Origin: an uncultured Alphaproteobacteria bacterium
Lineage (GTDB): Bacteria; Pseudomonadota; Alphaproteobacteria; Bin65
Length of the DNA: 32,000 bases
Reading direction: 5' to 3'
NCBI GenBank assembly: GCA_963754645.1
Contig: CAVWGP010000012.1
Span: forward strand, 771,718-803,717
Part shown: piece by piece, positions 1 through 21,711 of the stretch
Layout: the number at the start of each line of letters is the position of its first letter
Position numbering within the stretch: the stretch's first letter is position 1
Program-made: the position numbers and the translations under genes
Notes under the pieces: generated by a model
What the model was told of the DNA's origin: nothing
The model's input: only the letters and a program-made list of their open reading frames with translations
The model's database searches: none

Positions 1-1
1 C

Positions 2-142
2 CAAGCCGGTGCCTGCGGCGACGCTTCGCGCGCCACGGCCGAAAAAGGCGCCGCCACGATCGCCCATGTCGCGCGCCGCTTCGTCAACGTCCTGGGGCAG
101 ATCGACCGGCTGCCGGCCGATTGGCTGAAGCGGCGGGCGTGA
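2..142 (+). CDS. 3' end of an unidentified CDS entering from upstream of the window
   Basis: Frame 2 is open from the window edge to TGA at 140-142. About 40 of its 46 codons end in G/C, like the confident genes here. The stop overlaps the next gene's ATG (TGATG). The 46 aa (..ATAEKGAATIAHVARRFVNVLGQIDRLPADWLKRRA) contain no motif I recognise. Confidence 0.3.
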   Translation, partial: QAGACGDASRATAEKGAATIAHVARRFVNVLGQIDRLPADWLKRRA

Positions 143-969
143 TGGCCGAGGCGGGCTACAACGCCGAACAGGTGCGGCGCGCGCGCCTCGACCGAAAGTT
201 GCGCATCTTCGTGCCGATTTTCGTCCTCGCCCTGGCGCTGATCGGCTGGGAAGCGGCGGTGCGCATCAACGAGATTCCGCACTATCTGATTCCGGCGCCG
301 ACGCTGGTCGCCGAAACGCTGTGGACCGACGGCGCCTCGCTGCTGGGCTCGCTGCTCGTGACGCTCAAGCTCACCTTCGCCGCCCTCGGCCTGGCCGTTC
401 TCGGCGGCATCGTGCTGGCGACGCTGTTCGCCGTGTCGCGCTGGGTCGAGCTCAGCCTCTTCCCGTTTGCCGTCGTGCTGCAAGTGACGCCGATCGTGGC
501 CATCGCGCCGCTCATCATGATTTATGTCGAAGACACATTTGCCGCCCTGTTGATTTGCGCCTGGATCGTCGCGTTTTTTCCGATCCTGTCGAATACGGTC
601 ATCGGGTTGCGCAGCGCGGATCACAATCTGCGGGACTTGTTCACGCTCTACAAAGCGACGCCGGGCCAGCGCTTGCGGCTGCTGCTGGCGCCGAGCGCGC
701 TGCCGTTCTTTCTCGCCGGGCTCAAGATCGCGGGCGGCCTGGCGCTGATCGGCGCCGTCGTCGCCGAATTCGTCGCCGGCACCTCGGGCAAGGACACGGG
801 CCTCGCCTCGCGCATTCTCGAGGCCGCTTTCCGCAACGAAATCCCGCGCATGTTCGCGGCCCTGGTTCTGGTCTCGCTGTGCGGCGTCGCGATTTTCCTG
901 ATTTTCAACCTACTTTCGCATCTCCTGCTCGGCAAATGGCACGAGAGCGAGATCAAGCGCGACGCGTGA
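142..969 (+). CDS. ABC transporter permease, NitT/TauT (nitrate/sulfonate/taurine-type) family
   Basis: Track ORF 121..969. Polytopic membrane protein with the cytoplasmic-loop signature of binding-protein-dependent permeases (GLRSADHNLRDLFTLYKATPGQRLRLLLAPSALP). ATG 142 overlaps the upstream stop; TTG 121 is the alternative start. Its stop overlaps the next start (GTGA, 966-969). Confidence 0.85.
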   Translation: MAEAGYNAEQVRRARLDRKLRIFVPIFVLALALIGWEAAVRINEIPHYLIPAPTLVAETLWTDGASLLGSLLVTLKLTFAALGLAVLGGIVLATLFAVSRWVELSLFPFAVVLQVTPIVAIAPLIMIYVEDTFAALLICAWIVAFFPILSNTVIGLRSADHNLRDLFTLYKATPGQRLRLLLAPSALPFFLAGLKIAGGLALIGAVVAEFVAGTSGKDTGLASRILEAAFRNEIPRMFAALVLVSLCGVAIFLIFNLLSHLLLGKWHESEIKRDA

Positions 970-2237
970 CGGCGACGTCGATCGCCGACCGCATCGCGGC
1001 GGCAGAGGGCACTCTGCGCCTGCTCGGCGCGCATGTTCCGGCTCGCCTTGCGCCGCAATTGCCGCCGGGCGATGGCTGGGTCAACGCCGATATCGATGTC
1101 GCCGCCGGGCGGATCGCGCGCATCGCGCCGGCGGCGGATATCGCCGACGCAGCCGCCATCCGCATCGGTGGGCCGGTCATTCCGGCGCTCGTCGATCTCC
1201 ATGTCCATCTCGACAAGACCAACATCGTTGCGCGCGCGCCGGCGCCCGAGGGCGATTTGTTCGCCGCGATCGACGTGGCCGCGCGCGACTACGCTAACTG
1301 GACCGAGCCCGATCTCCGCGCCCGCGCCGAATGGGCGCTCGACCGCGCCTATCGCGCCGGCACGCGCGCGATGCGGACTCATGTGGATTGGCCGGCCATT
1401 GCCGAGCCGACCGCGTGGCGCGTGTTTGGCGAGCTCGCCGTCGAATGGCGCGGCCGCGTCGCGCTCGAACGCGCGAGTTTGACGCCGATCGATATATTCG
1501 CCGACGAAGCGGCGGCCGAGGCCATCGCGCGCGCCGTCGCCGAAGGGCGCGGCTCAGGCGGCGCCGTGCTCGGCGCCTTCGTCTATGTCACCGGCGATAT
1601 TCCGGCCAAGCTCGACCGCGTCGTCGCCGCGGCGGCGCGCCACGGACTCGATCTCGATTTCCACGTCGACGAAACCCTCGATCCCCGGGCGCGCGGCCTC
1701 GGCGCCGTGCTCGATGCGCTGGAGCGCCGGAAGTTTCGCGGTCGCGTTATCTGTGGCCATTGCTGCGCGCTCGCCATCCTACCCGCCCCCGAGCAACGCG
1801 CGCTCATCGCCCGCGCCGCCGCTTCGGGCGTCGTCATCGTCACGCTGCCGACGACGAACCTCTACGTCCAGGACCGTGTCGCGGGGGCAACGCCCGTCCG
1901 CCGCGGCGTCACCCTCGCCGCCGAGCTCGCCGAGGCCGGCGCGCCCATCGCCATCGCCACCGACAATGTGCGCGATCCCTTCTATCCCTATGGCGATTAC
2001 GACCTGCTGCGCGTCTACGAAACCGCCCTGATCACGCTCCATCTCGGCGGCGCCGCGCGCTGGCTCGACGCGATCACGACGACACCGGCGCGCGCCATGG
2101 GCCTCGATTGGGACGGCGCTCTCATGGCCGGGGCGCCGGCGGATTTGATCCTATTTCCGGGCGCGGCCGCCGCCGACATGGCGAGCCGGGCCGTGGAGCG
2201 GATCGTGCTGCGGGGTGGCGCGCCGGTTGCGCCCTGA
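966..2237 (+). CDS. Cytosine-deaminase-like metal-dependent amidohydrolase
   Basis: In-frame GTG at 966 within track ORF 321..2237. The first 215 codons of that ORF overlap the permease out of frame and are Arg-rich junk. CodA-family motifs: PALVDLHVHLDKT (HxH metal site), DLDFHVDE, IATDNVRDPFYPYG. Substrate is not assignable from sequence alone. Confidence 0.8.
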   Translation: MTATSIADRIAAAEGTLRLLGAHVPARLAPQLPPGDGWVNADIDVAAGRIARIAPAADIADAAAIRIGGPVIPALVDLHVHLDKTNIVARAPAPEGDLFAAIDVAARDYANWTEPDLRARAEWALDRAYRAGTRAMRTHVDWPAIAEPTAWRVFGELAVEWRGRVALERASLTPIDIFADEAAAEAIARAVAEGRGSGGAVLGAFVYVTGDIPAKLDRVVAAAARHGLDLDFHVDETLDPRARGLGAVLDALERRKFRGRVICGHCCALAILPAPEQRALIARAAASGVVIVTLPTTNLYVQDRVAGATPVRRGVTLAAELAEAGAPIAIATDNVRDPFYPYGDYDLLRVYETALITLHLGGAARWLDAITTTPARAMGLDWDGALMAGAPADLILFPGAAAADMASRAVERIVLRGGAPVAP

Positions 2238-2342
2238 AGAACAACAAAGACGACAGGGACAGCAGAGACAACAGGGGCTTCAGGCATGGGAGTCCGGGAT
2301 TGCAGTCGCTGAGGTGCCTGGTGTCCTTGAAGTACCTCGCCG

Positions 2343-4827
2343 CTACTCCTTCTCCTTCATCGGCATGGCGCTCGCCGCGACTTCATCGACGTAGCCGCGC
2401 AAGACCCAGCCGCTGATGAGCGCGACAGTGAGCGTGAACATCGCGAAAAAAACCAGGTGCGACGTGCCGGCGGTGACCCAGGTCATCGGCTGGCCCATGA
2501 CGGGCAGCAGGCCGAGCACGTTGCCCCAGGAAATGAGCCAGTGCGCGGCATACATGCAGGCGCCACCAAAGATCACAAATCCCAGCACGGTGCCGAGCTG
2601 CTGCTCGCGGAAATCGCCGCGGCCGAAATGACGCTCGATGGCGCCGCCCAGCATGAAAAGCAGAGTGACGAAGATCAGCTCGGTGCCCAGCGCCAGAAGT
2701 CCGGCGAAGCCGCCGAAGCGGTTGATGAGGAAGGCGGTGATAAAATCGTTCTGCACCTCGGGCAGAGCCATGACGCCGCCATTGCGCCCGAACCAGGCTT
2801 TGGCGCCATACCATTTGGCCTCGCCGACGAAGTCCATCGAGCCCAGCACCTGCGCGCCGGTGTGCGGATGGAAGCGCGGCTCGGCCCAGACCAACACGCG
2901 CTCTTTCTTGGGGAAGCTATCGGGCAGTCGGCTCGGGTCCTCGTAGACCTTGTAGGCGCCATAGGCGACGGCGACGACGCCGAGGATGATGAGCGGCCGG
3001 ATGCCCCACCACAACCAGCGCGCACGCGAGAAATCCCGGCGCCACGAACCGACCTTCCACATCCAGCACACCGAGATCGCCAGCATGATGATCAGCGGCG
3101 AAAAATCGCGCACGCCGGCGACCATGGCGAATACGATCATGGCGAAAATCGCGAGCATGCGGATATAGGGCAGCAGAAAGGCGAGTGGCTTGTTGCGGTA
3201 GGCGCTGACCTCGCGTTGCCGGCTCTCGGCGATATGCATGCCGACGAAGGCGAGCAAAGTGACGAAGGTCAACTTGACCAGCTCGACCGGCTGGAAACCG
3301 AACAGGCCTTCCTCGTTGCCCATGAAGAACTGCATGATCATGGCGCCCATCAGGACGAGGGCCAGCAGCGTGAACCAGCGTTCGTGGGTGTAGACCGCGT
3401 ACCACAGGCGGCGCCATTGCCGGTCGGGCACGACGGCAATCAGCGCCATGCTCCAGCCGAACAGCGACAGGATGAGCGCGTGATTGCCGAAGAAGCGCAA
3501 CCAGCGCGTGTTATCCGACCCGGCGCCGAGCTGGAGCAGCGTCGTCATGCCGATACCGGCAAGCAGCGTGATGCAAACCCAAAGCCAGCCCGAATAGCCG
3601 CGCAGCTTGCCGGAGAACACCAGCAGGAAGCTCGCCCAGAACCACGCGGCGATGGCGTTGTAGACCATGAGCGACTGATCGGGGTTGCCGGCGCTCTGCA
3701 GCAGCATGCCGGTGACCCAAATGCCCAGGAAGAACGGCACCACGCCGAGAATCCACAACAGCAGCGTGGTGAACGGGCGTTTGCGCCGGTACCAGACGAA
3801 GCAAATGAGCACGAACAGGCCGCCGCCGGCCGCAAGACCGATCGTCAGCGCGAGGTTGCGCGACAGAGCCCATTCCTCGATGCGCGCGCCGGCGCCGATC
3901 CAGTTGAGAAGCTGGCGGTTGGGCGGGTCGGGTTCGTCGGCGAAGAAGAATACGCGATTCGAAATCGGCGAAAACGTGATCTGGTCCGCCGTGGCCTGGA
4001 CGCGATAGCGCGAAATTCCGACGACGAGAACTCTCCACCTTGCCGTAAGCGCCGGCCAGAGGCGCCACGATATCGGCGAAGCCCTGGCCGCGCGTTTGCC
4101 CGCGCCGGATGAGCAATGTCTGGTCGCGCTGCGAGCCGGGCGACACCAGGAACTTGCCCGCCTGCCAGCCGATATAGACCGCCTCGGAGGCCAGGCCGGT
4201 GAGCTTCCAGCGATCCGAGCAATTGACGCCGCCGCCGATGCCGAACAGGCGGATTTCCGGCTTGTTCTCGGTGAGAAAGTCGCGGCCGAGCCACTTCATC
4301 GTGTTGATGCCGCGGCGCAGGGCGCCGTTGCAGACCTCGGTCACCGGTTCGCCCTTGGGCACGACAGTGCCTTCCCACGCCATTTCGCGTTGGGTTTTTA
4401 GGTCGCGCAGCACGATTCGGTCGCGCGTCAGGCCAGCCACCAGGATATCGGCATTGGGAAAGGATATCCGATCGCCCTCGCCCAGTTCCCAACGCTCGAC
4501 GAAGCGCGCGGCGAAGCGGTCGGTGGTGAGCAGCACGCGCTTGTTCTGAGTCTTGTTGGCGAACAGGATCTCATTGCTCTGGCGCGCGACCAGCAAGTGC
4601 TCGGCCGCCGCGCTTTTCGCGCCGGCACGCTGGCCGAGTTCGAGATAGCCGAGGACTTTCGGGAGTTCGCTGAACTTGAGCGTGATCGGCCCACCGACCT
4701 TGCCCGGCGGCGCGTTCTGCAGCACCTGCCAAGTCATCCACGCCCAGCCGATCAGGATAGCGTAGGTCAGGATGGTGGGAATGAAGGCTTTGAAGAAACC
4801 CAGGAACGTGTCGACGATCAACCGCAC
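2343..4827 (-). CDS. Divergent SEDS (FtsW/RodA/SpoVE-family) peptidoglycan glycosyltransferase homologue with a ~330-aa N-terminal extension. Frame is broken by an apparent 1-nt shift near 4025-4040 (pseudogene or sequence error).
   Basis: Track ORFs 3511..4827(-) and 2343..3812(-) are two frames of one gene. Frame A is sensible from GTG 4827 to ..APLAGAYGKVE (4033). Frame B is open and sensible from ~4031 (VLVVGISRYRVQATADQITFSP..) but has no start codon before GTG 3812, which lies inside a predicted TM helix. SEDS motifs: FGFQPVELVKL, NDFITAFLINRFGG, LGLLPVMGQPMTWVTAGTSH. There are many TM segments. Confidence 0.75.
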
Positions 4828-4873
4828 GGCCAGCCCACCCGTTCGCTCAGCAACTTACTGCAATGCCGCGCCG

Positions 4874-7720
4874 TCAATCGGTCGTCCCTTCTTCCTCGTC
4901 GCGCAGCAGGGGCGGTTCGTCGCCGGGCCGCGGCGTGTGCGACAGATCGGGCCGCTCGAGCAACTCGAGCGAGAACATGATGTCGCGCACGATCTGGCCG
5001 CACGAAGTGCCGCCGAAGCGGAAATTGCCGACCGCGTGCGACGTCATGCAGGCAACGGCGACGCGCCGGCCGTTTTCGCCGATCGGCTCCTTCCAGCCGA
5101 CGAACCAGCCTGAGTTGAAGCCCGCGTTCTTAGCGGGATCGGCGGTGCCGGTCTTGCCGTGCATGCGGCACCACAGGGGCTTTACCGCGCCCCGGCCGGT
5201 CGCCACGCGCAGCGCCGCGATTCGGTTGAGGATATCGTTGCTACGTCCCGCGCTCGCCACCAGCGTGCTGAGCACGAAGCGCGGCGACGCGGACTTGAAG
5301 ATCGAAACCGCCGTCGAACCCGCCGCCTCGGGCACCGATTTCATGCCCAGGCGGATCTCGCGGATGATCTCGGGGTCGAGTTTGAGCGCGGTTGCCTCCG
5401 GCGTCGGCAGTCGCTTGCCGAGCCAGCCGCGGATGATGTGCGGCTGCACGGTTTTGCCGCTGGCGATGGTGGCGGCGCCGCGGGCGAGGTGCAGGGTCGA
5501 CACCGTCCAGCCCTGGCCAATTCCGTTCAGGCCGATGCGATGGAACGCCGCAACCTTCCACACCGCGGCATTGTCCGGCAGCAACGCCTCGCCGCGCGTA
5601 ATGTGCGTCAGCGGCGAGCGGCCAAACAGCGGATCGTAGATCGCGGCCGAGCGCAGGCGGAACAGCCCGAGATCGCCCGGCACATTCACCGCGAGGTCCA
5701 TTGGGGTCTCCCAATCGACGCCGAATTCGCGAAGGCGCAACATGAAGCGCGTCGCCGGAATCTTGTCCGCCTTGACGGTGATGCGCCCGCCGCGTTGCGG
5801 CAGGCTTTTGATCCAATTGTCGACTGCCCTTTCTTCCAGCATGACGGCGAGGCGCGAGAAAAAGACGTTGTAGGACGATTTGATCGCTATGCGCACGCCG
5901 AGCTTCTCGAAGCTTGGCCGGCGGTATTCGGGATCGGGATGGTTGGGATCGATGCAGATCGGATCGCGCGTCGGTCCGCCCTGCGACATGGCGGCCTTGC
6001 TGTGATTGCTGATCGAGCGCGTGTCGGAGCCCGGGATCATATAAGTGCCGGCGCCCGAATCGAGGCCGGTGACTTGCCGGAATTCGCCCGGATCGAGCCC
6101 CATAAGCATGCGCTTGATGCGCGGATCGGCGCCCGGCGCCGAGGCTTCGAGCGCCGCCGAAAGCGCCAGCAAAGTCTTCCAGGTCGAGCCCGGCGTGTTG
6201 TGGATGTCCATCAATTCCCAAGACGCCACCGACATCGGATCCTTGTTCGGATTGCTGATGGCGTAGGAAACATAGTCCCAGGACTTCGCGCCGAACGGCG
6301 GCAGCGGCCAGTTTGCCATGCCGAGAATCGCGCCCGTATCGATATCGATCAGCATCACCGAGCCGCGCCGGTCGTGATAGAAACGGCCCGGCCGGGCTTC
6401 GCTGTCGAACTCCTTGGTCATGTAGTGCGTGACCGTATCCTGCACCGCCTTCTGCACGCGGCTGTCGATCGTGAGGACAATGTCGCCGGCGGCACCGAGG
6501 CGCGTTTGATTGAGCATGCCGGAGATACTGCTGGCGTCGCCGCGGCCGAAACCGATAAGGCTCAGAAGTCCAAGGTTGTTCGCTTCCTCGGTTGGCGTGC
6601 CCTTGCCTTCGACGTCGGTGAGGGCAACGCCGTCGAGCGTCTTGATGACGTAGCGATTCGCAGAGGCCGATGGCTTCGGACGCTCGACCGGGCGCCAATT
6701 ATAGACCCATTCCAGCGTGTCGATCGTCACCGTGCCCGGGTCCTTGCCCGGCGTCTTGCCGCGGCGCGCCTTGCTGCGCCCGCGCGTGCGCGGCCGCTCG
6801 GCGAGATCTTCGCCGCTCATGCTGATGGCGAGGCCGAATATTTTCGGCGCGCAATTGACGGAGGGTTCGACCGTGATCTCGACGTCGGTATCGCCGCGCA
6901 CCGGCAGGGTGACGAGCGCCGCGCGCGAACTCAGCTTGCACGGCCATATCGACTTGATTTCGCTATAGGTAATTTCGCGCCGGTCGATGCGCGCGCCAGG
7001 CGGGACCTTGACCGGATTGCCGATGACCTGGATCGAAACCGTGCCGGTATTGCCGGTGATGCGCGTCGAAAACACGAAACGCTGTTTGGGCTCAGGGGCG
7101 GCGACACCGACCCAATCGTCCATGCCCTTGGGAATCTCGTTCTTGTTGACGAAACCGAAGGTTTCCGGCACCAGCGCGCCGACTTGCTTGGGGTGGCCGG
7201 AATCGGACTTGGCCGTCCAGAATATTTTATTTTGGTCGGCATCGCTGACCTTGCGATTGTCGCGCACGGCGGCAATGAGGCGCGTTTCGTTCCACAGCTT
7301 GACCTGGGTCCGGACGATGATGCCCGCCGGCAAATCGTAAAGGTCCTTGAGCAGGCCCTCCTGCACGACCTGGCTGACGCCCTCGTCCGAGTCGCCCTTG
7401 TCGCCCGCCGCCTTCTTGATCAGCACATAGTCCGGCGGGGCCATTTCAAGGCCGGTGTCCTCGCGCGGCACGACAAGTTTGGCCTCGATCAAGGCACGGA
7501 ACAGCGCGTAGTCCTCGGTTTCGTTGAGCGCGCGGGTGAGGTCGGGCTTGCGCGCGGTGGCTTCCTTCTGCAGCCCGTCGAGGCGCCACAAAACGAGAAC
7601 CGCGACGCCGGCAATCACCGCGAGATATACGGCAGCGCCGATAACGCGACTGCCAAAGCCGAGAAACGAGAAAAACAAGTTTCGCTTCGGCTTTTGCTTG
7701 TTCTTTTTTCTTTCGGCCAT
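4874..7720 (-). CDS. Class-B penicillin-binding protein-like D,D-transpeptidase with an unusually large N-terminal ectodomain
   Basis: 948-aa ORF. AAAGGAG lies 5 nt upstream of ATG 7720. Lys-rich N-terminus followed by one TM helix (aa ~20-45). Catalytic motifs: SxxK = STWK (aa 512-515, nt 6176-6187), SxN = SYN (aa 616-618, nt 5867-5875), KTG (aa 856-858, nt 5147-5155). Confidence 0.85.
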   Translation of the reverse strand: MAERKKNKQKPKRNLFFSFLGFGSRVIGAAVYLAVIAGVAVLVLWRLDGLQKEATARKPDLTRALNETEDYALFRALIEAKLVVPREDTGLEMAPPDYVLIKKAAGDKGDSDEGVSQVVQEGLLKDLYDLPAGIIVRTQVKLWNETRLIAAVRDNRKVSDADQNKIFWTAKSDSGHPKQVGALVPETFGFVNKNEIPKGMDDWVGVAAPEPKQRFVFSTRITGNTGTVSIQVIGNPVKVPPGARIDRREITYSEIKSIWPCKLSSRAALVTLPVRGDTDVEITVEPSVNCAPKIFGLAISMSGEDLAERPRTRGRSKARRGKTPGKDPGTVTIDTLEWVYNWRPVERPKPSASANRYVIKTLDGVALTDVEGKGTPTEEANNLGLLSLIGFGRGDASSISGMLNQTRLGAAGDIVLTIDSRVQKAVQDTVTHYMTKEFDSEARPGRFYHDRRGSVMLIDIDTGAILGMANWPLPPFGAKSWDYVSYAISNPNKDPMSVASWELMDIHNTPGSTWKTLLALSAALEASAPGADPRIKRMLMGLDPGEFRQVTGLDSGAGTYMIPGSDTRSISNHSKAAMSQGGPTRDPICIDPNHPDPEYRRPSFEKLGVRIAIKSSYNVFFSRLAVMLEERAVDNWIKSLPQRGGRITVKADKIPATRFMLRLREFGVDWETPMDLAVNVPGDLGLFRLRSAAIYDPLFGRSPLTHITRGEALLPDNAAVWKVAAFHRIGLNGIGQGWTVSTLHLARGAATIASGKTVQPHIIRGWLGKRLPTPEATALKLDPEIIREIRLGMKSVPEAAGSTAVSIFKSASPRFVLSTLVASAGRSNDILNRIAALRVATGRGAVKPLWCRMHGKTGTADPAKNAGFNSGWFVGWKEPIGENGRRVAVACMTSHAVGNFRFGGTSCGQIVRDIMFSLELLERPDLSHTPRPGDEPPLLRDEEEGTTD

Positions 7721-7805
7721 AGCAACTCCTTTACCGGCGCGGTCCGGCCCAGTCGGTCTTTATCTTACTCTAGCGCAGCCGGCACAAGACCAAGACGGTC
7801 GGCGA

Positions 7806-7828
7806 GTCCGGCGCTTGGCCGCCAGGAC
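7806..7828 (-). other. GC-rich stem-loop in the FHA-gene / PBP-gene spacer
   Basis: Minus strand reads GTCCtGGCG-gccaag-CGCCGGAC: an 8-bp stem with one bulge and a 6-nt loop, 16 nt after the FHA-gene stop. No U-tract follows, so it is not a canonical intrinsic terminator. Confidence 0.25.
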
Positions 7829-7843
7829 GGACGTTTGAACAAA

Positions 7844-9858
7844 TCATTCGGGCTCGGCGTCGCGCTTGCCGGCCCGGCCGCGCAGCATGGTGGCGTCGCG
7901 CGAAGGCAGCACTTGCGGCTTTTCCTGGTTGAAACGCAAAAGGTAGCTGCCGACGATGAACATCTCTTCGGGCTCAAGAACCGCGGCACCACGATCGCCC
8001 GGTGCCAAGGATCGGATCAGCTTGCCTTCCTGGTCGAGCACGTAGCTCGGCATCTTGCCGTCCGCCATCGCGATTTCAAGCCGGCTGCCGCTCAACTTCA
8101 ACGACACATGGCGGCGCGACAGGTTAAGCGCATTGAGCCGCGCGCCCCTAGGCCCCTGCCCGCCCGCCCAGGTCAGCGCGTCGGGATGATCGAGCAATTC
8201 CATCGGCAAGTCGGGCTGCGCGCCCTCAACGGCAGAATCGCTACGGCCGAGCAGGAACGGATCAGTGCTCAGGGGGAACGAACTTTCCTGCCGCAACATG
8301 AGCAGGCCGTGATAGACATCGGGTACCGGCGAGGCGAGCAATTCGAGATATTTGCCCGAGCCGGTATCGAGCGAACTTGGCATGTAGTTGACTGGGCTGA
8401 ATTCGGTTTGGCCCGGCAAGCGGTAGAATAATGTCGCCGCATCGGCGCGCGCCTGGAGCGCGAGGCAGCGCTTGATATCGACTGTCGCCTTGTCCGCCGC
8501 CCGCACCGGGCGGCCGATGCGATCGAACCAGATGGTCCATTGCTCCAATCCGCCCAGTCGGCGCTGGCCGTCGATGCGCAGCAGCGCGCAGCCCGTGACC
8601 TTAAGCGAGTAACGTTGCGAAATTGGCGCTTGATGGGCCGATTTGGCCGACGGTGGCGGCGTCCTTGGCGCCGGCGTCGCTGCGGGCGCTGGTGCCGCTG
8701 GCAACGCGGCCCGCGGCTGTGCGCCGGCGCCGTCCTTCCCGGCACCGCCAAAAAAACGGTCGAGGCCGACGCGCGCCGGTGCTTGGCCGACGCCCGATGC
8801 CGGCGCCGGTTGCGGCGGGCGCACTGGTGGCGCACCTTTGCGGGCGGTGGGTACGTCGTCATCCGGCTGTTTCGCCGCGACGGGCTTGGGCGGCGGCGGC
8901 GGCGGGGCGCTTTCGGTTTGGGCGCCTCCTTGGGCGGCAGATTGAAGGCCCGCCTTGTCGCCGGCTCGGAAATGAACTTGACCTCGATGACGACCGTGTC
9001 GTCGCCTTCGCTTTCGGGGCCGCGCTTGTCCTTCAAGATCCAATGGAACGGTTCGCCGTCGTGCTTGGGGCTGATCGTCTGAACGAGGCTGACATAGTCG
9101 CTGTCGGAATAGACGCGTTCGGCATCGGAGGAGGAGAGATTGAGCGAGATATTGCCCTCACGACGGCCGAACCAAAGCGGCGCGCGCACCGGACCGGCAC
9201 GATCCGGCGTGAGCAGGATCGAGCCCTGTCCGGCATAGACCCCGACCGGACGCTTGATCTGGGCGCCATTGCGCCAGAACGACCAATCCTCGAATTTGAC
9301 CGGCTCGGCCTCCCGGCTACGCCGCATCTGGATCGAGCCGAGCACCTCGTCCTCGGCCGTCGGCACGAAGACGCCGAAGCCGAACTGGAACACGACGGTA
9401 TTCGCCTCGAGATCCTCGTCGGGCATGATCGTGTAGTTCGGGTCGCGCTCGGGCGGCATGGAGCGCTTGAATTTCATGCGGTGAAGCTGGGCGAGATTGC
9501 TGGCCAGGGCCTCGAGCCGCTTGCCGCGGCGCTTCGAGTCGGCGCGCCATTTGGCGTCCGCGATCCACATCACAACATCGGTAAACACCGGCGTCTGTTC
9601 GCGAAATCGGCCCTCGGCGTCGCGCACGTGCTTGATGTCGCGGCAGCCATCGAGCGCCGCCTGCAGGCGGAACTCGCGGTCGCCGGTTTTTTCCTCGGCG
9701 ATCTTGCTGTTGCCGCCATAACGCCGGTCCCACAGCGGATCGGGATCGAACGGATCCTCGACGCCGGTGAGCGATAGGGTAAAGACGCCGAGACTCTCGC
9801 CCGCTTCGCGATACTCCTCGATCGTCTCTTTACCTTTGTGTTTGAAAAGTCCGAACAT
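7844..9858 (-). CDS. FHA-domain protein: unassigned ~318-aa N-terminal region, Pro/Ala-rich linker, C-terminal FHA. Frame is broken by an apparent 1-nt shift at 8904-8907 (pseudogene or sequence error).
   Basis: Track ORFs 8269..9951(-) and 7844..9043(-). The first frame is sensible from MFGLFKHKGKETIEEY (ATG 9858) to ..NLPPKEAPKPKAP and then becomes Arg-rich junk. The second frame is sensible from ..APPPPPPKPVAAKQPDDDVP to the stop at 7844. Adding one C to the C4 run joins them as ..KPKAPPPPPPPKPVAAK... No TM segment is seen. Confidence 0.7.
7928..8272 (-). other. FHA-like domain core within the 7844..9858 gene
   Basis: FLLGRSD (Gly-Arg), LSRRHVSL (Ser-x-x-His, nt 8108-8119) and C-terminal EMFIVGSYLLRF match the FHA pattern. 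There is a ~40-aa insertion between GR and SxxH, and no clear Asn-Gly. Confidence 0.6.
8891..8907 (-). repeat. (CCG)5 proline-codon trinucleotide repeat abutting a C4 homopolymer (minus strand)
   Basis: The plus strand reads cggcggcggcggcgg followed by gg, giving G4 at 8904-8907. The frame break of the FHA gene maps here. Confidence 0.8.
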
Positions 9859-9980: not shown

Positions 9981-11135
9981 ATGACCAGCCGCGACCCCGC
10001 TTATGTGACCAACGTCCACCAACTCTTGCGCGACCAGGCGCGCCGCTTCGTCGAAACCGAAGTGCTGCCCCACGCGGATGCGTGGGAAAAGCAGGGTTTC
10101 GTGCCGCGCGCCGTCTACCGGCGCATGGGCGAGCTGGGTTTTTTCGGCCTGCGCTATCCCGAGGAATACGGCGGGTCGGGCCTCGACAGCGTGGCCTCGG
10201 TCGTGTTGTGGGAAGAGCTGGGCCGCAGCGGCTATAGCGGCTTCGTCGTCGGCGGCGCGGTGCACGGCGAAATGGCGTCGCCCCATCTCGCCCGCTACGG
10301 CTCCAAGGCGCAAAAAGACCGCTGGATGCCCAAAATCGTCGACGGCTCGGTCATCACGGCCGTCGCCGTCACCGAACCCGACGGCGGTTCCAACGTCGCG
10401 GCGCTCAAGACCCGGGCCAAGCGCCAAGGCAACGATAAGTGGGTGATGAACGGCTCCAAAATCTTCATCACCAACGGCGTGCTCGCCGATATCTATTTCG
10501 TGGCGGCGCGGACCGATCCCGACGCCAAGGGTTCGCGCGGCATTTCGATGTTCATCGTCGAAAAGGGCAGCCCCGGCTTCAAAGTCGCCAAACAGCTCGA
10601 CAAGTTGGGCTGGCGCTCCTCCGATACGGCCGAACTTGTGTTCGAGGATTGCGAAATTCCGGCGGAAAACCTGCTCGGCGAAGAGAACAAGGGTTTCTAC
10701 GCAGTAATGCGTAATTTCCAAAACGAGCGTATCGTCGGCGCTTCGGTCGCGCTCGGCGAAACCGCCAAGGCGATCGAACTTACGCTCGATTGGGTCAAGA
10801 CGCGCAAGGCTTTCGGCGGCGTGCTGTGGGACAAGCAGGTGATCCGCAACCGCCTCTCCGAGCTCGCGATGCGGCTCGAGGCTGGGCGACAGCTCACCTA
10901 TCACGCCGCCTGGCTCGACGCCCAAGGCATCGATTGCGTCAAGGAAGTGTCGATGGCCAAGGCGATGATGGGCGAACTCGTCAACCAAACCATGTATGTC
11001 TGCGGTCAGTTCCAGGGCGGCATGGCTTTCATGAAGGAGTCGCCGATCGAGCGGATGTATCGCGACGCCCGAGTGGCCTCGATCGGCGGCGGCGCCACCG
11101 AGGTCATGCTCGAAGAGGTGGCGAAGCGGATGTAG
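9981..11135 (+). CDS. Acyl-CoA dehydrogenase
   Basis: 384 aa from ATG 9981, with GGGGAGA 4 nt upstream. The track start TTG 9945 adds 12 implausible residues. Typical ACAD blocks: [49 protein letters not shown]. Confidence 0.9.
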
Positions 11136-12270
11136 CGGCCCGCCATTCCTGGCGGACATCCTCATCGGCCTCCGCGGCTTGCTCAGCCGCCGCCAAGCGG
11201 GCGAATTCGTCGGCAGGCAGAAGCCGCGACAACGCCCACGCCGCCGCGGCCCGCACCACCGGCGAGGCGTCGCGCGCCAGCCGCTCGGCCTGGGGCCGCA
11301 GTGCCGGTTCGCCTGAGTTGCCGATGGCGATCAGCACGTTACGGATAAAGCGGTCGCGCCCGATGCGCTTGATCGGCGAGGCGCGGAAGACGGCGCGGAA
11401 GGCGGCATCGTCCAGAGCCGCGAAATCGGCGAGCTTCGGCCGGGTGAGTTCGACACGGGGCGCGAAAGCGTAGTCCTTGGTGCGCTGCGCGAACTTGTTC
11501 CACGGACACACGGCGAGGCAATCGTCGCAGCCATAGATGCGGTTGCCGATCGCCGCGCGGAATTCGCGCGGAATGTGGCCCTTGTGCTCGATGGTGAGAT
11601 AGGAAATGCAACGCCGCGCATCGAGCCTGTAGGGTGCTGGGAACGCCTTGGTCGGACATACGTCAAGGCAGCGCCGGCACGCGCCGCAACGATCGGCGGC
11701 AGCGATATCGGGCGCCAGGTCAAGCGTCGTCAGCACGCAACCGAGAAACAGCCACGAGCCGAATTCGCGGGAAACGAGATTCGTGTGCTTGCCTTGCCAG
11801 CCGAGTGCCGCGCGCTCGGCGAGCGGTTTTTCCATGAGCGGCGCGGTATCGACGAAGACCTTTACGTCGCCGCCATAGGTGCGTTGCAGCCAGCCGGCAA
11901 GGCGCTTCAAGCGCGACTTCACGGTGCCATGGTAATCGGCGTTGCGGGCGTAGACCGAGACCGTGCCACGGTCGGGCATCGCCAGGGTTTCCAGCGGATC
12001 GCCAGGCGGACCGTAGTTGAGGCCGAGGAGGATGGCGCTGCGCGCCGCCGGCCACATGGCGCGCGGATCGGCCCGACGCTCGGCGGTGGTTGCGAGCCAC
12101 TCCATTGTGCCGTGATTGCCTGCGGCCAGATATTCCTTCAATCGCACCGCAAGCTCCGGCGGCAGCGACGCGGCGGCAAAGCCGGCCGCATCGAAGCCGA
12201 ACTCGATCGCTTTGGCGCGGATCGCGGCCTCCCTGCTCGCGGCCTCGCCGCCCGCCGCCGGCGCGGTCAT
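11104..12270 (-). CDS. queG: Epoxyqueuosine reductase
   Basis: Two ferredoxin-type Cys clusters ([30 protein letters not shown]), [18 protein letters not shown], and a HEAT-like C-terminus. ATG 12270 lies 4 nt after the queF stop. The 3' end overlaps the convergent acyl-CoA dehydrogenase gene by 32 nt. Confidence 0.85.
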
Positions 12271-12274
12271 GGCG

Positions 12275-12760
12275 TTAGCCGCGGCCCCGATAGGGTGCGA
12301 CGCCCTGTTCGGGCAGCCACAGCCCGCGCGGCGGCGGACCCGATTGATAGAACACATCGATCGGCATGCCGCCGCGCGGATACCAATAGCCGCCGATGCG
12401 CAGCCAGCGCGGCACGATCGTGCGCATCACGCGCTTGGCAATGGTCAGGGTGCAATCCTCGTGGAACGCGCCGTGATCGCGGAAAGACGACAGATAGAGC
12501 TTCAAGCTCTTGCTCTCGGCCAGGCGCCGGCGCGGCACGTAGTCGATGACGAGGTGCGCGAAATCGGGCTGGCACGTGATCGGGCACAGCGCGGTGAATT
12601 CCGGCGCCGTGAAGCGCACGAGATAGAGCGTGCCTGGATGCGGGTTCGCCACGGTTTCGAGCACAGCGTCCGCGGGCGAGGCCGCGGCGCGCGCCGGGCG
12701 GCCAAGCTGGGTCAATTTCGGTCCGATCGATCTGGGCATCCCGGCAAGATACGTCGCCAT
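12275..12760 (-). CDS. queF: NADPH-dependent 7-cyano-7-deazaguanine (preQ0) reductase, unimodular type
   Basis: QueF motif ESKSLKLYL and catalytic-Cys block [14 protein letters not shown]. The start is uncertain: ATG 12760 gives 161 aa, ATG 12739 gives 154 aa, and the track ATG 12844 adds an implausible N-terminus. Confidence 0.8.
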
Positions 12761-12968
12761 CGCACCGCATCCAAGAACCCAATCTGGCACCACCGGCAAG
12801 ACCGTGAATGAGACCTGATTGGCATCGATCGTTAGGATTTTCAAATCGTTGAGCCGGCCCGCCAGCCGGTTTCTTCGGCCGCATCCGTGCCCGGAGCGGG
12901 CGCATTCATAAATTCTTAGCTTGGCCGGAACACAATGAGCGTTGCTTCAACAAGAGCCGGTTCCAGCC

Positions 12969-13601
12969 ATGGACAAGAAAGTTATGATGATCGGCGGCGC
13001 CGTCGCCGTCGTCGTGCTTGGCGGCGCATACATGCTGCTGTCGCCCTCGCGCGCGCCCAAGCCGGTCCAACTGACGTCAACCGAGCCCCCGCCGCCGCCC
13101 TCGGCTTGGGTCGAGAAGACCGCGGAAGTTGCGAATACGAGCTACGGCTTTTACTTCAAGTATCCGAAAGACTGGGGTCCGGGTTTCCAATTTTCCGGCA
13201 ATGTCGTGCAAAGCGTCGGCCGGCGCGACGGGGTCTATTGTTCGGTCAGCATTGTCGAGAAACGGCACGAGAGCGACGAAACCGGCAAGCCGAAGACGCT
13301 CGCCGCGCTTCTGACGGCGGCGACCGACAAGAATGTCAGCGGCCTTTATGGGTCGGCAAAGGCGAAGGTCGACAAATTCGCCCCCGGCAAGCTCGGCAAG
13401 CAGGACAGCCGCGAATTCATGATGACAGTGACGGGCGGAACGGTCGGCGACATCAAGGTTCATGGTCATTTGACGATGCGCGACCAGGGCGTGGTCTATC
13501 TTATTTGCGCGGCGCCGACGAAAATCTATCCCGGCAAGGATGTGCAAGATCCGTTCAAGCTGGTGATGGAAACCTTCGAGTTCGACGGCCGCCCGCGCTA
13601 G
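12969..13601 (+). CDS. Hypothetical membrane-anchored protein (paralogue A)
   Basis: ATG 12969 (MDKKVMMIGGAVAVVVLGGAYMLL = N-terminal TM anchor), a PPPPP linker, then a ~150-aa domain (YGFYFKYPKDW ... FEFDGR). About one-third identical by eye to the next gene. Confidence 0.7.
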   Translation: MDKKVMMIGGAVAVVVLGGAYMLLSPSRAPKPVQLTSTEPPPPPSAWVEKTAEVANTSYGFYFKYPKDWGPGFQFSGNVVQSVGRRDGVYCSVSIVEKRHESDETGKPKTLAALLTAATDKNVSGLYGSAKAKVDKFAPGKLGKQDSREFMMTVTGGTVGDIKVHGHLTMRDQGVVYLICAAPTKIYPGKDVQDPFKLVMETFEFDGRPR

Positions 13602-13646
13602 GCTTCGTCGAGCGGATTGCGGCACAAGGCACGCGAGGCGCGATCG

Positions 13647-14294
13647 ATGTTGGATGCTCAAAAGCTGGTTTTGTGCGTCGTCGCGATCGCCTTTGGCTTT
13701 CTTGGCCTGCCGTTCGTATACATGCAGATCGTCGGCGCTTTGATGGACGACAGCGGCCTCAATTCGCCGATGTCGCTGGCCTCTGTTGTCGCCACGAAAT
13801 TTGACGGCGAGCAATCTGAGCTTCGGAACGAGCGGTTCGGTTTTTCCTTTCGTTTTCCCCGGGATTGGGTCGCCGGGCCGCGCTACGCGGCAAACGTCAG
13901 CGAAAGCGTCGGCCGATCGGACGACGCATTTTGCTATGTGAGCATTGCCCGGAATCGCTTCGATTCGGATTCGAACGGCGTGCCCAAGCGGCTGCGCGAG
14001 AATATGAGCCGTCTCGCGCCTACGCATCTTCAGGGCGAAATTCAAGGCGCAAAGATCACGGTTGAAAATTTTGGCCGTAGCCAGTTGGGCGGCCAGGATG
14101 CGCGCGAATTCGTCCTCAAGGCGTCGAGCCCGATCCTCGGTGAAATCGCATTGCGCGGACACGTGACCCAGCGCAACTACGGGGCGATCTTCGTCGTTTG
14201 CCGGGCGCCGATGCACATCTTCCCGGACGCCGGCCTGCAATCGGAGTTCGAAGCCGTCCTGCGAAGCTTTCGCTTCGATGGCCGCGCCCATTAA
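13647..14294 (+). CDS. Hypothetical membrane-anchored protein (paralogue B)
   Basis: ATG 13647 with GAGG 8 nt upstream. N-terminal TM anchor ([23 protein letters not shown]), then a domain collinear with paralogue A ([15 protein letters not shown], GxQDxREF, CxAP, FRFDGR). Confidence 0.7.
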
Positions 14295-15421
14295 AGCTGC
14301 GCGATATCGCCCATCGCATAGCTGTCGCGTCGATCGCGGGCGAAACTCGGCCACGCGCCCGCTTCGATCGCCACGCGGATGCCGCGCATCAAGTCTTGAT
14401 AATGCTGTAGGTTGTGCTGGGTCAGCAGCATCGGCCCGAGCATTTCGTCGGCTTTGAAGAGATGATGGAGATAGGCGCGGCTTAGGCTTCGGCACGCGGT
14501 GCACGCACAATCGGCGTCGATCGGGCGCGGATCCTCGGCGTGGCGCGCGTTGCGGATATTGACCTCGCCGCGGCGCGTGAACGCCTTGCCGGTGCGGCCC
14601 ATGCGGGTCGGCAGCACGCAATCGAACATGTCGATGCCGCGCGCCACCGCGGCAAGAATATCCTCCGGCCGGCCGACGCCCATGAGGTAGCGCGGCTTGT
14701 CGGCGGGCAAGTGCGGCACCGTCACATCGAGCGCTTCGGCCATATCGGACTTGCTTTCGCCGACCGCGAGGCCGCCCACCGCGTAACCTTCGAAATCGAG
14801 CGCGGCGAGACTGGCCGCCGATTCGCCGCGCAATCCGGCGTAGACGCCGCCTTGCACGATGCCGAACAGCGCGTAACCCGCCCGCGGCCGAAACGCCGCC
14901 TTCGCCCGCTCGGCCCAGCGCAGCGATAACCGCATCGAGTCGCGCGCCTGCGGCTCCGTCGCCGGGAAGCTCGTGCATTCATCGAGCTGCATCGTGATCG
15001 TGGCATCGAGCAGATTCTGTATCCCGATGGCGCGTTCGGGCGTCAGTTCGATCTTGCTGCCGTCGAGGTGCGAGCGGAAGATCACGCCGCGCTCGCTGAG
15101 CGTGCGGAGCGCGCCGAGCGACATGACCTGAAATCCGCCCGAATCCGTGAGAATCGGCCCCGGCCAATCCATGAAACGGTGCAGGCCGCCCAGCGCCGCG
15201 ACGCGTTCGGCACCGGGGCGCAGCATGAGATGATAGGTATTGCCCAGCACGATCTCGGCGCCGGTGGCACGCACCTGATCGGCCAGCATCGCCTTGACCG
15301 TGCCGGCCGTTCCCACCGGCATGAAGGCGGGCGTTTCCGCCGTGCCATGCGCCGTGTGCAGCCGGCCGCGCCGCGCCGCGCCGTCGGTCGCAAGCCGTTC
15401 GATCCGGAAACCCGCGCTCAT
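14291..15421 (-). CDS. tgt: Queuine tRNA-ribosyltransferase (tRNA-guanine transglycosylase)
   Basis: 376 aa. [36 protein letters not shown] and the zinc-site CxCxxC (CACTAC). Start overlaps the queA stop (ATGA at 15418-15421). Confidence 0.93.
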
Positions 15422-16470
15422 GCCGGCCCCTCGGGCGCGCGCTCGAGCAGGCAGGCATCGCCGTAGGAATAGAACCGATAGGCTTCACGAATCGCGTGGG
15501 CATAGGCCGCCTTCATGCGCGCCGTGCCGGCGAAGGCGCAGACCAGCATGTACAGCGTCGAGCGCGGCAAATGGAAATTCGTCAGCAGTAGATCGGCGGC
15601 GCGGACGCGATAGCCGGGCACGACGAACAGCCGCGTTTCGCCGGTCCAGGCCCGGAGGCGATCGGCCTGGTCCGTGGCGCTTTCGAGCACGCGCAGGCTC
15701 GTTGTGCCGACCGCGACGATGCGCCCGCCCGCCGCCCGCGCCGCGACGATGCGCGCCGCCGCGGCCGCGCCGATTTCGCCCCACTCCGCATGCATGACGT
15801 GATCGCGCAAGTTCTCCGCTTTCACCGGCAAGAAGGTTCCGGCGCCGACATGGAGCGTCACAGGCTCGCGCGCCACGCCGCGCCGGTCGAGTGCGTCGAA
15901 CAATTCCGGCGTAAAATGAAAGCCCGCGGTCGGCGCCGCGACGGCGCCGGCATGGCGCGCGTAGATCGTTTGATAGTTCGCGCGATCCAGCGGATCGCCG
16001 CCGGCGGGGCGCTTGATGTAGGGCGGCAACGGCATGGCGCCCCAGCGTTCGAGCGCCGCGACAAGCGCGCTGCCCGCGAGATCGAACGTCAAAACCACCT
16101 CGCCGGCCTCGCCCTTGGCCGCAACAGTCGCGGCGAAATCCGGGCCGCAGATAACGCGGTCGCCCTCGGCGAGGCGCTTCGCCGGCTTGGCGAAGGCGCG
16201 CCACGTTGCCGCGTCCTCGCGCTTGTGCAGCGTGAGTTCGATCTTGGCCGTGCCGCGCCGGCCGACGAGGCGGGCCGGAATAACGCGCGTGTCGTTGAGC
16301 ACCAGAATATCGCCGGGGCGAAGCAGCGCCGGCAAGTCGCGCACGACACGATCCTCGAATGCGCCCTGCGCTGCCGGCACGTACAACAGCCGCGCCGCGT
16401 CGCGCGGACGCGCCGGCTGCGTCGCGATCTGCGCGCGCGGCAGTTCGAAATCGAAATCGGCGGTTTTCAT
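15418..16470 (-). CDS. queA: S-adenosylmethionine:tRNA ribosyltransferase-isomerase
   Basis: [11 protein letters not shown].., [55 protein letters not shown]. Start taken at ATG 16470 (alternative ATG 16482). The track ORF to 16659 adds a non-coding-looking extension. Confidence 0.9.
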
Positions 16471-16534
16471 CGCGCGCGGCATACCATGTCCCCGCCGCCG
16501 GCGCATCAAGGCCGCGCCTTGACAAGCGGCGGGC

Positions 16535-17410
16535 ATGTGTGCCCCTCCTCCGCGCATGACATCGGCATCGCAAGCGGTCGAAACGCCGTCCGGCAAGGGC
16601 GCGGGCGACGAGAATTTTCCCGTCGGCTCGTTGCTGCTGCCCAAGGCGCTGCGGCCCAAGGTCGCGATCTTCTACGCCTATGCGCGCGCCATCGACGATA
16701 TCGCAGACAATCCGGCGCTCGCGGCCGGCGACAAGATCGCGCGGCTCGACGGTTTCGATCGCGCGCTCACCGGCGCCAGCGACGATCCGGCCTATGCCAA
16801 AGCGATCGCCGTGCGCGACCGGCTCGGCGCGGTCGGCGGCACGATCCGCCACTGCCGCGATCTCGTCGTCGCCTTCAAGCGCGACGCGGAGAATCCGCGC
16901 TACGCGAATTGGCGCGAGCTGATCGATTTCTATTGCATGAAGTCCGCGGCGCCGGTCGGCCGCTTTCTGCTCGATCTGCACGATTGTCCGGCGAGCCTCT
17001 ATCCCGGCGCCGACGCGCTGTGCAACGCGCTGCAGGTCATCAATCATCTGCAAGATTGCCAAGCGGACCGCCGCACCCTCGACCGGGTCTATCTGCCGGG
17101 CGACTGGCTCGCGGCCGAAGGCGCCACGATCGCCGATCTCGAACGCGCCGCGGCCACGCCCGGCCTGCGCCGCGTCATCGACCGTTGCTTGGCGGGAACC
17201 GAAGAATTGCTGGCCCAGGCGCGCCCCCTGCCGCGCCAATTGCCGAGCCGCCGCTTGGCGATGGAAACGGCGGCGATCCTGCGCCTGGCGGAAAAGCTCA
17301 CCGCCATGCTGCGCCGGCGCGATCCCCTGGCCGAGCGCGTCGCCTTGTCCAAGGCGGGCCTGATCGCCTATGCCGTGCTGGGCGTCGGGCGCCTTTGGCT
17401 CGGCCGCTGA
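16535..17410 (+). CDS. hpnC: Hydroxysqualene synthase (squalene-synthase-like HpnC)
   Basis: [13 protein letters not shown] and [13 protein letters not shown] motifs, and first position in the hpnCDE order. ATG 16556 is an alternative start. Confidence 0.85.
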
Positions 17411-17437
17411 GACACGCAAATCGAGGTCACCGCCATC

Positions 17438-18307
17438 GTGCAAGCGACATCCGCCACCGCCGATACGACCGATTTCGAGGCGCGCGAGCACGTGCACCAC
17501 GTGGTCGCCGCCTCGCGCACGTCGTTCCTGCAAGGCATGCGCGTGCTGCCCGAGCCTCGGCGCGAGGCGATGTATGCGATCTACGCCTTTTGCCGCGAGA
17601 TCGACGATATCGCCGACGAGCCGGCGCCGACTGCGGACAAGATCGCGCGCCTCAAGGAATGGCGCCGCGAGATCGATCGGCTTTATGCCGGCGCGCCGCA
17701 AACGCTGACCGGCCGGGCCCTGCTGCCGCATGTGCGCGCCTACGGCATGGCGCGCGGCGATTTTCTCGATCTCATTGCCGGCATGGAAATGGACGCGATC
17801 GAGGATATTTGCGCGCCGCCGCTGTCGCGCCTCGAGCTCTACTGCGACCGCGTTGCCGGCGCGGTCGGCCGGCTTTCCATCCGGGCGTTCGGCGCCACGG
17901 AGGAGCGCGCGACGGACGTCGCGCGCGAACTCGGCCAGGCCTTGCAGCTCACCAACATCCTGCGCGATCTGGCCGAGGATGCCGAACGCGGCCGGCTCTA
18001 TCTGCCGGCCGAGATGCTCGATGCCCACAACATCAAGACGCGCGTTCCGGCGGAAATCCTGGCCCATCCCAATTTCGCCGGCGCGTGCCGCGATCTCGCG
18101 GCAGTGGCGCGCGAGCGCTACGCCAAGGCGGCGGCGGCGATGCGCAAATGCGCGCGCCGCCCGATGCGGCCGGCGGCGCTGATGATGGCGGCTTATGGCG
18201 CCGTTCTCGGCCTGCTCGAACGCCGCGGATGGCAGCGCCTCGGCGAGAAAGTCAGCTTGCCCGGATGGCGCAAGCTGTGGATCGCGCTGCGGCACGGCTT
18301 GCTCTAG
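17438..18307 (+). CDS. hpnD: Presqualene diphosphate synthase (HpnD)
   Basis: SFLQGMRVLPEPRREAMYAIYAFCREIDDIADE and LQLTNILRDLAEDAERGRLYLP (the two Asp-rich squalene/phytoene-synthase motifs). GTG 17438 with GAGG 11 nt upstream. Confidence 0.88.
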   Translation: MQATSATADTTDFEAREHVHHVVAASRTSFLQGMRVLPEPRREAMYAIYAFCREIDDIADEPAPTADKIARLKEWRREIDRLYAGAPQTLTGRALLPHVRAYGMARGDFLDLIAGMEMDAIEDICAPPLSRLELYCDRVAGAVGRLSIRAFGATEERATDVARELGQALQLTNILRDLAEDAERGRLYLPAEMLDAHNIKTRVPAEILAHPNFAGACRDLAAVARERYAKAAAAMRKCARRPMRPAALMMAAYGAVLGLLERRGWQRLGEKVSLPGWRKLWIALRHGLL

Positions 18308-18317
18308 GGCCTCGACA

Positions 18318-19613: not shown

Positions 19614-19670
19614 GGCGAACGGCTTGACATCCGGTCGGCCAGCGGGACATGGGTACCCGCCCCAGCTTGG

Positions 19671-21705: not shown

Positions 21706-21711
21706 ACAGAT

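Follow-up and report, generated by a model that had tools for sequence, protein, structure and literature searches.

A conserved gene trio of uncultured bacteria encodes an FHA-fold protein beside a divergent pair of SEDS and penicillin-binding proteins

Pairs of a SEDS-family glycan polymerase and a class B penicillin-binding protein (bPBP) are core machines of bacterial wall building and a major antibiotic target. Current models of these machines rest on RodA–PBP2 and FtsW–FtsI, in which the pedestal of the penicillin-binding protein (PBP) activates the polymerase. In Mycobacteriales, such a pair is encoded in the cluster fhaA-fhaB-pstP-rodA-pbpA-pknA-pknB (PMC11898655, PMC6554272). In FhaA, a long disordered linker separates the C-terminal FHA domain from a globular N-terminal domain of unknown fold (PMC11898655). 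A survey from 2025 notes a different arrangement, exemplified by Bosea lupini, in which "only-TPase" bPBPs neighbour enlarged SEDS proteins whose outward domain is beta-rich (Garcia-del Portillo et al., Microlife 2025, PMC12516126); FHA is never mentioned in that paper. Here we describe three adjacent genes (g1, g2 and g3) from an uncultured alphaproteobacterium, located on a 32-kb stretch of contig CAVWGP010000012.1 that we call the window. The three genes encode an FHA-fold protein, a PBP and a SEDS protein, respectively. An earlier sequence-only reading of this DNA by a model knew of no characterised proteobacterial counterpart, and our full-text literature searches likewise found no description of this family, the survey with the Bosea example being the publication that comes nearest. 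We consider it probable that g2 and g3 form a specialised peptidoglycan synthase, and that g1 is a cytoplasmic FHA regulator encoded in the same operon and served by a kinase and a PP2C phosphatase in trans.

The three genes lie co-directionally on the minus strand (Table 1), separated by 123 nt (g1/g2) and 46 nt (g2/g3), with a divergent acyl-CoA dehydrogenase gene on one side and a convergent amidohydrolase gene on the other. The codons for the diagnostic motifs translate exactly as expected (SRRH of g1 at 8108–8119; STWK, SYN and KTG of g2 at 6176–6187, 5867–5875 and 5147–5155). With this analysis we could confirm the gene order, gaps, flanks and motif coordinates that the sequence-only reading had listed. 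Scans for promoters and terminators returned no site that exceeded chance level. Since neither gap holds a coding-strand terminator-like site, the trio is probably transcribed as a single operon. The frame of g2 is intact; g1 and g3 each shift frame once, and the lengths given for them are those after repair.

All three protein families are rare. Among 5.8 billion proteins, g1 is represented by 71 clusters (90% identity) and g2 by 46. An exhaustive HMMER search with g1 returned 243 representatives (50% identity), nearly all of them 500–740 aa long and of common layout. A pattern search for g1 in 185,579 species representatives located it at 19 loci, all in uncultured metagenome-assembled genomes (MAGs), mostly from Alphaproteobacteria and some labelled Candidatus Odyssella; the protein search additionally returned a Rhodospirillaceae MAG. 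No match was obtained by tblastn of g1 against 72,556 plasmids. The order g1-PBP-SEDS is kept in every sufficiently long related locus (loci are numbered with the prefix L), down to about 29% identity and with varying flanking genes. Therefore, we can eliminate the possibility that the trio is a chance arrangement. As a bare trio it occurs in about 23 non-redundant loci, again all from uncultured, mostly alphaproteobacterial MAGs, so that the conservation of the neighbourhood, which the sequence-only reading had proposed to survey, is borne out. Both g1 and g3 are better conserved than g2 (68% and 67% versus 50% in L002), and in L059 and L068 g1 directly adjoins the SEDS gene.

The product of g2 is a bPBP-like transpeptidase with a membrane anchor. 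Transpeptidase is its sole Pfam match (8.4e-20), and it contains no GT51 domain. Hydropathy predicts a single transmembrane (TM) helix (~aa 26–44), represented by a long helix (16–66) in the AlphaFold2 (AF2) model, followed by an N-terminal ectodomain (~aa 67–405) and a bPBP-type transpeptidase domain with inserts (~aa 410–925). Among homologues of 28–86% identity, which we used to assess the catalytic motifs of both g2 and g3, the residues S512xxK515, S616xN618 and K856-T-G858 are invariant or nearly so. Foldseek matches the AF2 model (mean predicted local distance difference test, pLDDT, 82.9) to transpeptidase domains of bPBPs with E ~1e-15, and the best sequence and fold matches in the PDB are MrdA, FtsI, PBP2 and PBP3. 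By hhalign, g2 is about equally near to PBP2 and FtsI of E. coli, and the alignments cover just residues 243–614 of the former and 231–556 of the latter. The pedestal (PBP_dimer, PF03717) is not detectable in g2, neither by Pfam at E < 0.1 nor by hhalign against the pedestals of PBP2 and FtsI. Matches between the g2 family profile and bPBPs in the PDB start only at about profile position 382, and the ~340-residue stretch that links the anchor to the transpeptidase domain aligns to no solved bPBP. The earlier assignment to class B thus stands for the transpeptidase domain, the motifs and the anchor, but not for the pedestal, to which the N-terminal module may be kin at a distance that sequence and profile comparison does not bridge.

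The third gene encodes a predicted SEDS-family glycosyltransferase with an N-terminal extension. FTSW_RODA_SPOVE (PF01098) matches at 3.7e-14 (52.9 bits versus a cutoff of 26.4, model positions 5–344 of 356), and hhalign aligns the protein to residues 59–348 of E. coli RodA with a probability of 95.7%. The family keeps QPVELVK, NDF and LPVMGQPMTW without variation, and these sequences align with QPSEIAK, TDF and LPVVGVPLPL of E. coli RodA, with NDF at the position of the catalytic Asp. Hydropathy indicates 14 TM helices: a first helix (TM0), which a loop of ~290 aa separates from three more, and then the ten of the SEDS core. The way in which K/R-rich loops alternate is consistent with a cytoplasmic N terminus and a periplasmic location of the 290-aa domain. 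This predicted periplasmic domain contains conserved residues, among them two Cys that hardly ever vary (C166, C203), and found no match in the PDB. Three candidate relationships were rejected by hhalign: the domain is neither a relocated pedestal (probability 1.5%), nor kin of the FHA region of g1, nor kin of the N-terminal module of g2. In L027 (8493–10968) the SEDS gene is called as two open reading frames (ORFs) 20 nt apart, of 403 aa (the N-terminal extension) and 414 aa (the SEDS core), which reflects either a genuine split or another indel.

The g2/g3 pair has much in common with RodA–PBP2 (MrdB–MrdA) of E. coli and T. thermophilus. In both systems a SEDS gene is adjacent to a gene for a bPBP-type transpeptidase, the polymerase contains QPxExxK, the catalytic Asp and a C-terminal LPxxGxP, and the transpeptidase contains SxxK, SxN and KTG. 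The trio could be a strongly diverged housekeeping elongasome instead of an extra machine, a proposal consistent with the best NCBIfam matches (rodA_shape for g3, pbp2_mrdA for g2), with the slightly higher score of g3 against E. coli RodA than against FtsW, and with the lack of a second mrdAB or ftsWI copy in the window. We consider this proposal improbable. The scores lie about 7-fold under the equivalog cutoffs (48.8 versus 336.7 for g3 with TIGR02210; 68.8 versus 455 for g2 with TIGR03423), as expected from the claim of the sequence-only reading that the cores are far from the housekeeping proteins. Furthermore, g3 is roughly equidistant from RodA and FtsW, g2 is no nearer to PBP2 than to FtsI, and the family is rare and patchy (19 loci and 46 PBP clusters in the searches described above), carries additional domains and TM helices, and shows linkage to signalling genes. 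Unlike RodA–PBP2, the trio lacks a detectable pedestal in g2 and has the PBP gene before the SEDS gene with an FHA gene upstream. The transpeptidase domain of g2 is ~200 residues longer, with inserts, and the SYGGS of RodA reads TAGTS in g3.

Compared by description, the Bosea lupini pair resembles g2 and g3 in that it comes from an alphaproteobacterium and combines a transpeptidase without a recognisable pedestal with a SEDS protein that has an extra extracytoplasmic domain. A pedestal-like domain has been reported for the Bosea SEDS protein (PMC12516126), whereas the g3 domain shows no pedestal similarity. In addition, g2 differs from its Bosea counterpart by keeping a 340-aa N-terminal module of its own.

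After assigning the two membrane proteins, we turned to g1. This protein has no match in Pfam or NCBIfam at E < 0.1, including the FHA and Yop-YscD_cpl models, and none in PADLOC; the family profile found no match among PDB sequences at E ≤ 1. A role in anti-phage defence is unsupported, since the PADLOC, Pfam and NCBIfam scans were all empty. No TM helix (by hydropathy) and no signal peptide were found, consistent with the predicted cytoplasmic location. As a structural proxy we used the AF2 model of P0047, the closest intact homologue (pLDDT 81), which consists of four parts: an N-terminal domain (22–297), a disordered linker, an all-beta domain (377–495) and a C-terminal FHA-fold domain. 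For this last domain, FHA domains are the sole significant Foldseek matches in the PDB (probability 1.0, target TM-score 0.6–0.7), with APLF, MDC1, CT664, OdhI, GarA and FhaA among the matched structures. An hhalign comparison with a canonical FHA domain stays below significance, and nevertheless places SRRH in register. It is the predicted structure, rather than any sequence model, which shows that g1 carries an FHA fold. The proposal that a SEDS–PBP pair shares an operon with an FHA-fold protein is therefore upheld, by Pfam for g2 and g3 and by AF2 and Foldseek for g1. Among the Pfam profiles named by the sequence-only reading, Transpeptidase and FTSW_RODA_SPOVE matched, but PBP_dimer, FHA and Yop-YscD_cpl did not.

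In canonical FHA domains, phosphothreonine is contacted by a Gly-Arg loop, by Ser and His within SxxH, and by the NG-loop Asn. Of the corresponding residues, G502, R503, S544 and H547, together with R545, are invariant in 69 homologues that represent the trio clade, and conservation of the G, R and S is at least 90% in the wider family. The N-terminal domain is the best-conserved part of the entire trio, with many charged or aromatic residues among its invariants (including D38, D40, W43, R64, Q66, D70, R84, E87 and D94). This domain has no relative by Pfam, NCBIfam, PADLOC, PDB sequence or Foldseek, and the Foldseek comparison gave no non-FHA match for the middle beta domain either. Across the trio, about 900 residues in conserved domains match nothing in Pfam or the PDB, in line with the large unplaceable domains that the sequence-only reading had pointed out.

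Table 1. Features of the trio and of its two frame breaks (window coordinates)
Feature	Position	Strand	Basis
g1, FhaA-like adaptor, predicted cytoplasmic, 670 aa after repair	7844..9858	-	ORFs, frame repair, hydropathy
g1 N-terminal globular domain (~aa 22–297)	8968..9795	-	AF2 pLDDT ~90
g1 frame-change site, run gcgccccgccgccgccgccgccc coding for the poly-Pro/Ala linker	8888..8910	-	three-frame translation, sequence
g1 middle all-beta domain (~aa 415–533)	8258..8614	-	AF2 strands 377–495 (P0047 numbering), pLDDT ~90
g1 C-terminal FHA-fold domain (~aa 537–653), including GR and SRRH (8108–8119)	7898..8248	-	Foldseek
g2, bitopic PBP, 948 aa, intact	4874..7720	-	Pfam Transpeptidase, motifs, AF2
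g3, predicted SEDS-family glycosyltransferase with N-terminal extension, 827 aa after removal of one T	2343..4827	-	Pfam, hhalign
g3 predicted periplasmic domain (~aa 37–325), between TM0 and the three extra TM helices	3852..4719	-	hydropathy, loop alternation
Extra T breaking the g3 frame	4027..4027	-	sole indel versus L071; gapped position versus L001 too
g3 ten-TM SEDS core (~aa 413–809)	2400..3590	-	motifs QPVELVK, NDF, LPVMGQPMTW

What could the FHA domain respond to? As the sequence-only reading had stated, there is no Hanks-type kinase or PP2C gene anywhere in the window. More distant relatives of g1 tell a different story: 13 non-redundant g1 loci contain Pkinase and/or PP2C genes, with assignments confirmed by Pfam. 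The most complete example is L037, where a serine/threonine kinase (STK) gene and the other four genes are contiguous in the order STK-PP2C-g1-PBP-SEDS. Related arrangements are S8/STK-PP2C-g1-PBP (L028), g1-PP2C-PBP-SEDS with the SEDS gene as two ORFs (L027), STK-PP2C-g1 (L031), the same order with no synthase genes nearby (L029), g1 with PP2C and STK genes and the PBP-SEDS pair ~6 kb off (L069 and L070), and another combination of kinase, PP2C and synthase genes with g1 (L049). Two loci of the trio type (L016 and L039) have a kinase gene less than 3 kb away. Because relatives of g1 adjoin STK and PP2C genes while GR and SRxH stay invariant in the trio-only clade, we expect a kinase in trans for the trio. 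The description of the locus as self-contained is therefore doubtful, and judged by gene order and conserved residues, the trio resembles a five-part module that has been trimmed and still depends on a distant kinase. The g1-linked kinases (L029 4889–10746, L063 3128–5326, L028 812–4087, L039 4257–5891) bear unusual partner modules, namely a C-terminal Lcl_C domain, a Peptidase_S8 fusion, Sel1 repeats or an N-terminal FHA domain; none of them has PASTA domains.

These features allow a comparison with the actinobacterial cluster. Both systems encode an FHA protein in an operon with a SEDS polymerase and a monofunctional transpeptidase, and the more distant g1 relatives (L037, L028 and L027) also share with Actinobacteria the PP2C and Hanks-type kinase genes in the operon. 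FhaA and g1 share one layout, in which a globular N-terminal domain is joined through a disordered linker to an FHA domain at the C terminus. In contrast to the actinobacterial cluster, the window and the trio clade have no kinase or PP2C gene in cis, and the kinases beside g1 relatives have Lcl_C, Sel1, S8 or FHA modules instead of PASTA domains. The N-terminal domain of g1 belongs to no Pfam family and does not match the solved N-terminal domain of FhaA; Foldseek finds the FHA domain of FhaA only (2lc1, 3oun), and g1 has an extra beta domain. Compared with actinobacterial PbpA, g2 has no PBPA_dimer or pedestal match; compared with actinobacterial RodA, g3 adds four TM helices and the 290-aa periplasmic domain. 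The hosts also differ, since the trio is found in uncultured, mostly alphaproteobacterial MAGs. The likeness between g1 and FhaA is one of logic and architecture, with no demonstrable homology of the adaptors. The wiring of FHA protein, kinase and phosphatase to a SEDS–PBP pair is already known from Actinobacteria; what is new here is the lineage, the non-canonical synthase pair, and three conserved domains without known relatives.

These observations suggest how the trio may work. The g3 protein would polymerise lipid II to glycan strands and g2 would cross-link the stem peptides, as predicted from their conserved catalytic residues. The lineage-specific periplasmic modules (~340 aa in g2 and ~290 aa in g3) would stand in for the bPBP pedestal and presumably form the contact between the two partners. 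In the cytoplasm, the FHA domain of g1 would bind phosphothreonine made by a Hanks-type kinase, and the N-terminal domain may engage the synthase or its substrate supply. We infer that g1 could thereby switch or localise wall synthesis upon a signal. In the trio clade, the kinase and the PP2C phosphatase would have been lost from the operon and act in trans. A bolder and more tentative version of this mechanism is that the family represents a third SEDS–bPBP lineage in Gram-negatives. In this lineage new modules on both partners would replace the pedestal interface, a new FhaA-like adaptor with a novel regulatory or substrate-binding N-terminal fold would gate the synthase, and a five-gene module would have been trimmed to three genes once a trans-acting kinase took control.

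Several findings weigh against a phosphorylation-controlled synthase of this kind. Kinase and PP2C genes are missing not only from the window but also from within 10 kb of most trio-type loci (the ~23 bare-trio loci). The FHA domain of g1 has diverged beyond the reach of the Pfam model, and the family does not conserve the NG-loop Asn (consensus MAxGxMP). On reading the alignments by eye, we saw no Thr that is conserved in the cytoplasmic parts of g2 and g3, which is why the phosphorylated target may be the kinase itself or another protein. The same findings are what would be expected if the FHA domain acted independently of phosphorylation, as in YscD and EssC. In that case the trio would be truly self-contained and g1 would serve as a constitutive cytoplasmic scaffold or assembly factor. 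We consider this alternative unlikely given that the phosphate-contacting G-R and S-R-x-H residues are invariant in the trio clade, that relatives are tightly linked to STK and PP2C genes, and that two trio loci have a kinase gene within 3 kb. Further points against our proposal are the missing pedestal in g2, by which the mode of g2–g3 pairing becomes a matter of conjecture, the lack of a relative of known function for the N-terminal domain of g1 and for both periplasmic modules, and the broken frames of g1 and g3 in the source assembly.

By gene linkage, the family ties wall synthesis to phosphothreonine signalling beyond the Gram-positive and actinobacterial world. It keeps both catalytic centres without a recognisable pedestal, and its polymerase has gained four TM helices and a periplasmic domain. 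The family therefore provides a natural experiment on alternative ways to couple and control a polymerase and a cross-linker, and, with ~240 family representatives to compare, it offers three conserved, well-folded domains that have no assigned function. Should the trimming scenario be true, the family would illustrate the reduction of a five-gene kinase-phosphatase-FHA-synthase module to three genes as control moved to a distant kinase.

The two frame breaks call for an explanation of their own. As the sequence-only reading had assumed, both g1 and g3 need repair, and comparison with L001 and L071 shows that the indels are real. The source annotation breaks both genes and calls pieces as separate ORFs (P0130, 489 aa; P0144, 326 aa). 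L071, a short-read contig from an independent run (ERR11593397), is 99.8% identical to the window over 4668 bp: its positions 1–4684 differ from window positions 1901–6567 by eight substitutions and by the T at 4027 only. Without this extra T, L071 encodes an intact g3 of 827 aa (P0283), and it represents the same population sampled elsewhere. Given this intact allele, the break does not belong to the g3 gene as such and stems from either a strain-level mutation or an error in the assembly. The g1 site (8888–8910) is CCG-rich and contains a net non-triplet indel: the gaps versus L001 add up to 116 nt, a number not divisible by 3. Exact look-ups of g1 fragments returned only the 326-aa ORF of the source genome itself, and no intact g1 allele was matched. 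Since all relatives read both sites in a single frame, we can rule out programmed frameshifting. Recurrent splitting of g1 at the linker is also ruled out, as the interruptions in two other loci are at other positions: L023 (~11205, on a 318-kb MAG contig) shows a frameshift after "LLRIDGDRRLPG", and L048 (10118–10120) has an in-frame TAA directly before "GVALPRID".

With two of three genes frame-shifted, the trio of the source genome might instead be a decaying pseudogene cluster. Two frameshifts within 7.5 kb, while ~15 other window genes give full-length Pfam matches, and the annotation of the pieces as separate ORFs are consistent with decay. In our judgement this is a poor explanation. 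In addition to the nearly identical contig with an intact g3, the indel at 4027 sits only 5 nt from a mismatch versus L071, neither g1 nor g3 contains any other lesion, and conservation resumes past each shift. The source contig is 1.1 Mb long, and the frameshift in g1 of L023, which also comes from a long-contig MAG, fits assembly indels. Finally, with two events only, we calculate a chance of ~0.07 that both fall into the trio.

The genes around the trio differ between loci. In five of them (L004 7054–7635, L017 9199–9771, L013, L014 and L015), a small gene for a Tat-signal Peptidase_M15 (DUF882) protein lies directly upstream of g1; this exported protein, possibly a cell-wall hydrolase partner, points to cell-wall work. 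One subclade (L017 11925–13430; also L014 and L038) contains a 501-aa ORF between the g1 and PBP genes, in which we recognised by eye a GAF domain and a class III adenylate cyclase. L002 has a TPR-guanylate cyclase gene 5 kb downstream of the trio, and an extracytoplasmic function (ECF) sigma factor gene is occasionally found downstream. A Planctomycetales-labelled MAG (L022 193–1416) encodes only the first ~270 residues of g1, 77–82% identical to those in the window, with no PBP or SEDS gene in the next 9.5 kb; this partial gene may be a remnant, or the contig may be chimeric or wrongly binned.

Two further gene groups occupy the remainder of the window. Queuosine genes are found at 11104–16659 (queG 11104–12357, tgt 14291–15421, queA 15418–16659). 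The ~2-kb stretch between them (12.4–14.3 kb) has the lowest GC content in the window (0.606) and contains no ORF with a Pfam match. Positions 16535–29182 hold a complete-looking hopanoid biosynthesis cluster, with genes for two squalene/phytoene synthases, an amine oxidase, a squalene-hopene cyclase, a PNP_UDP_1 phosphorylase, a radical SAM protein with DUF3463 (HpnH-like), LytB/IspH, an epimerase, an MMPL transporter (HpnN-like) and a MlaC-domain protein.

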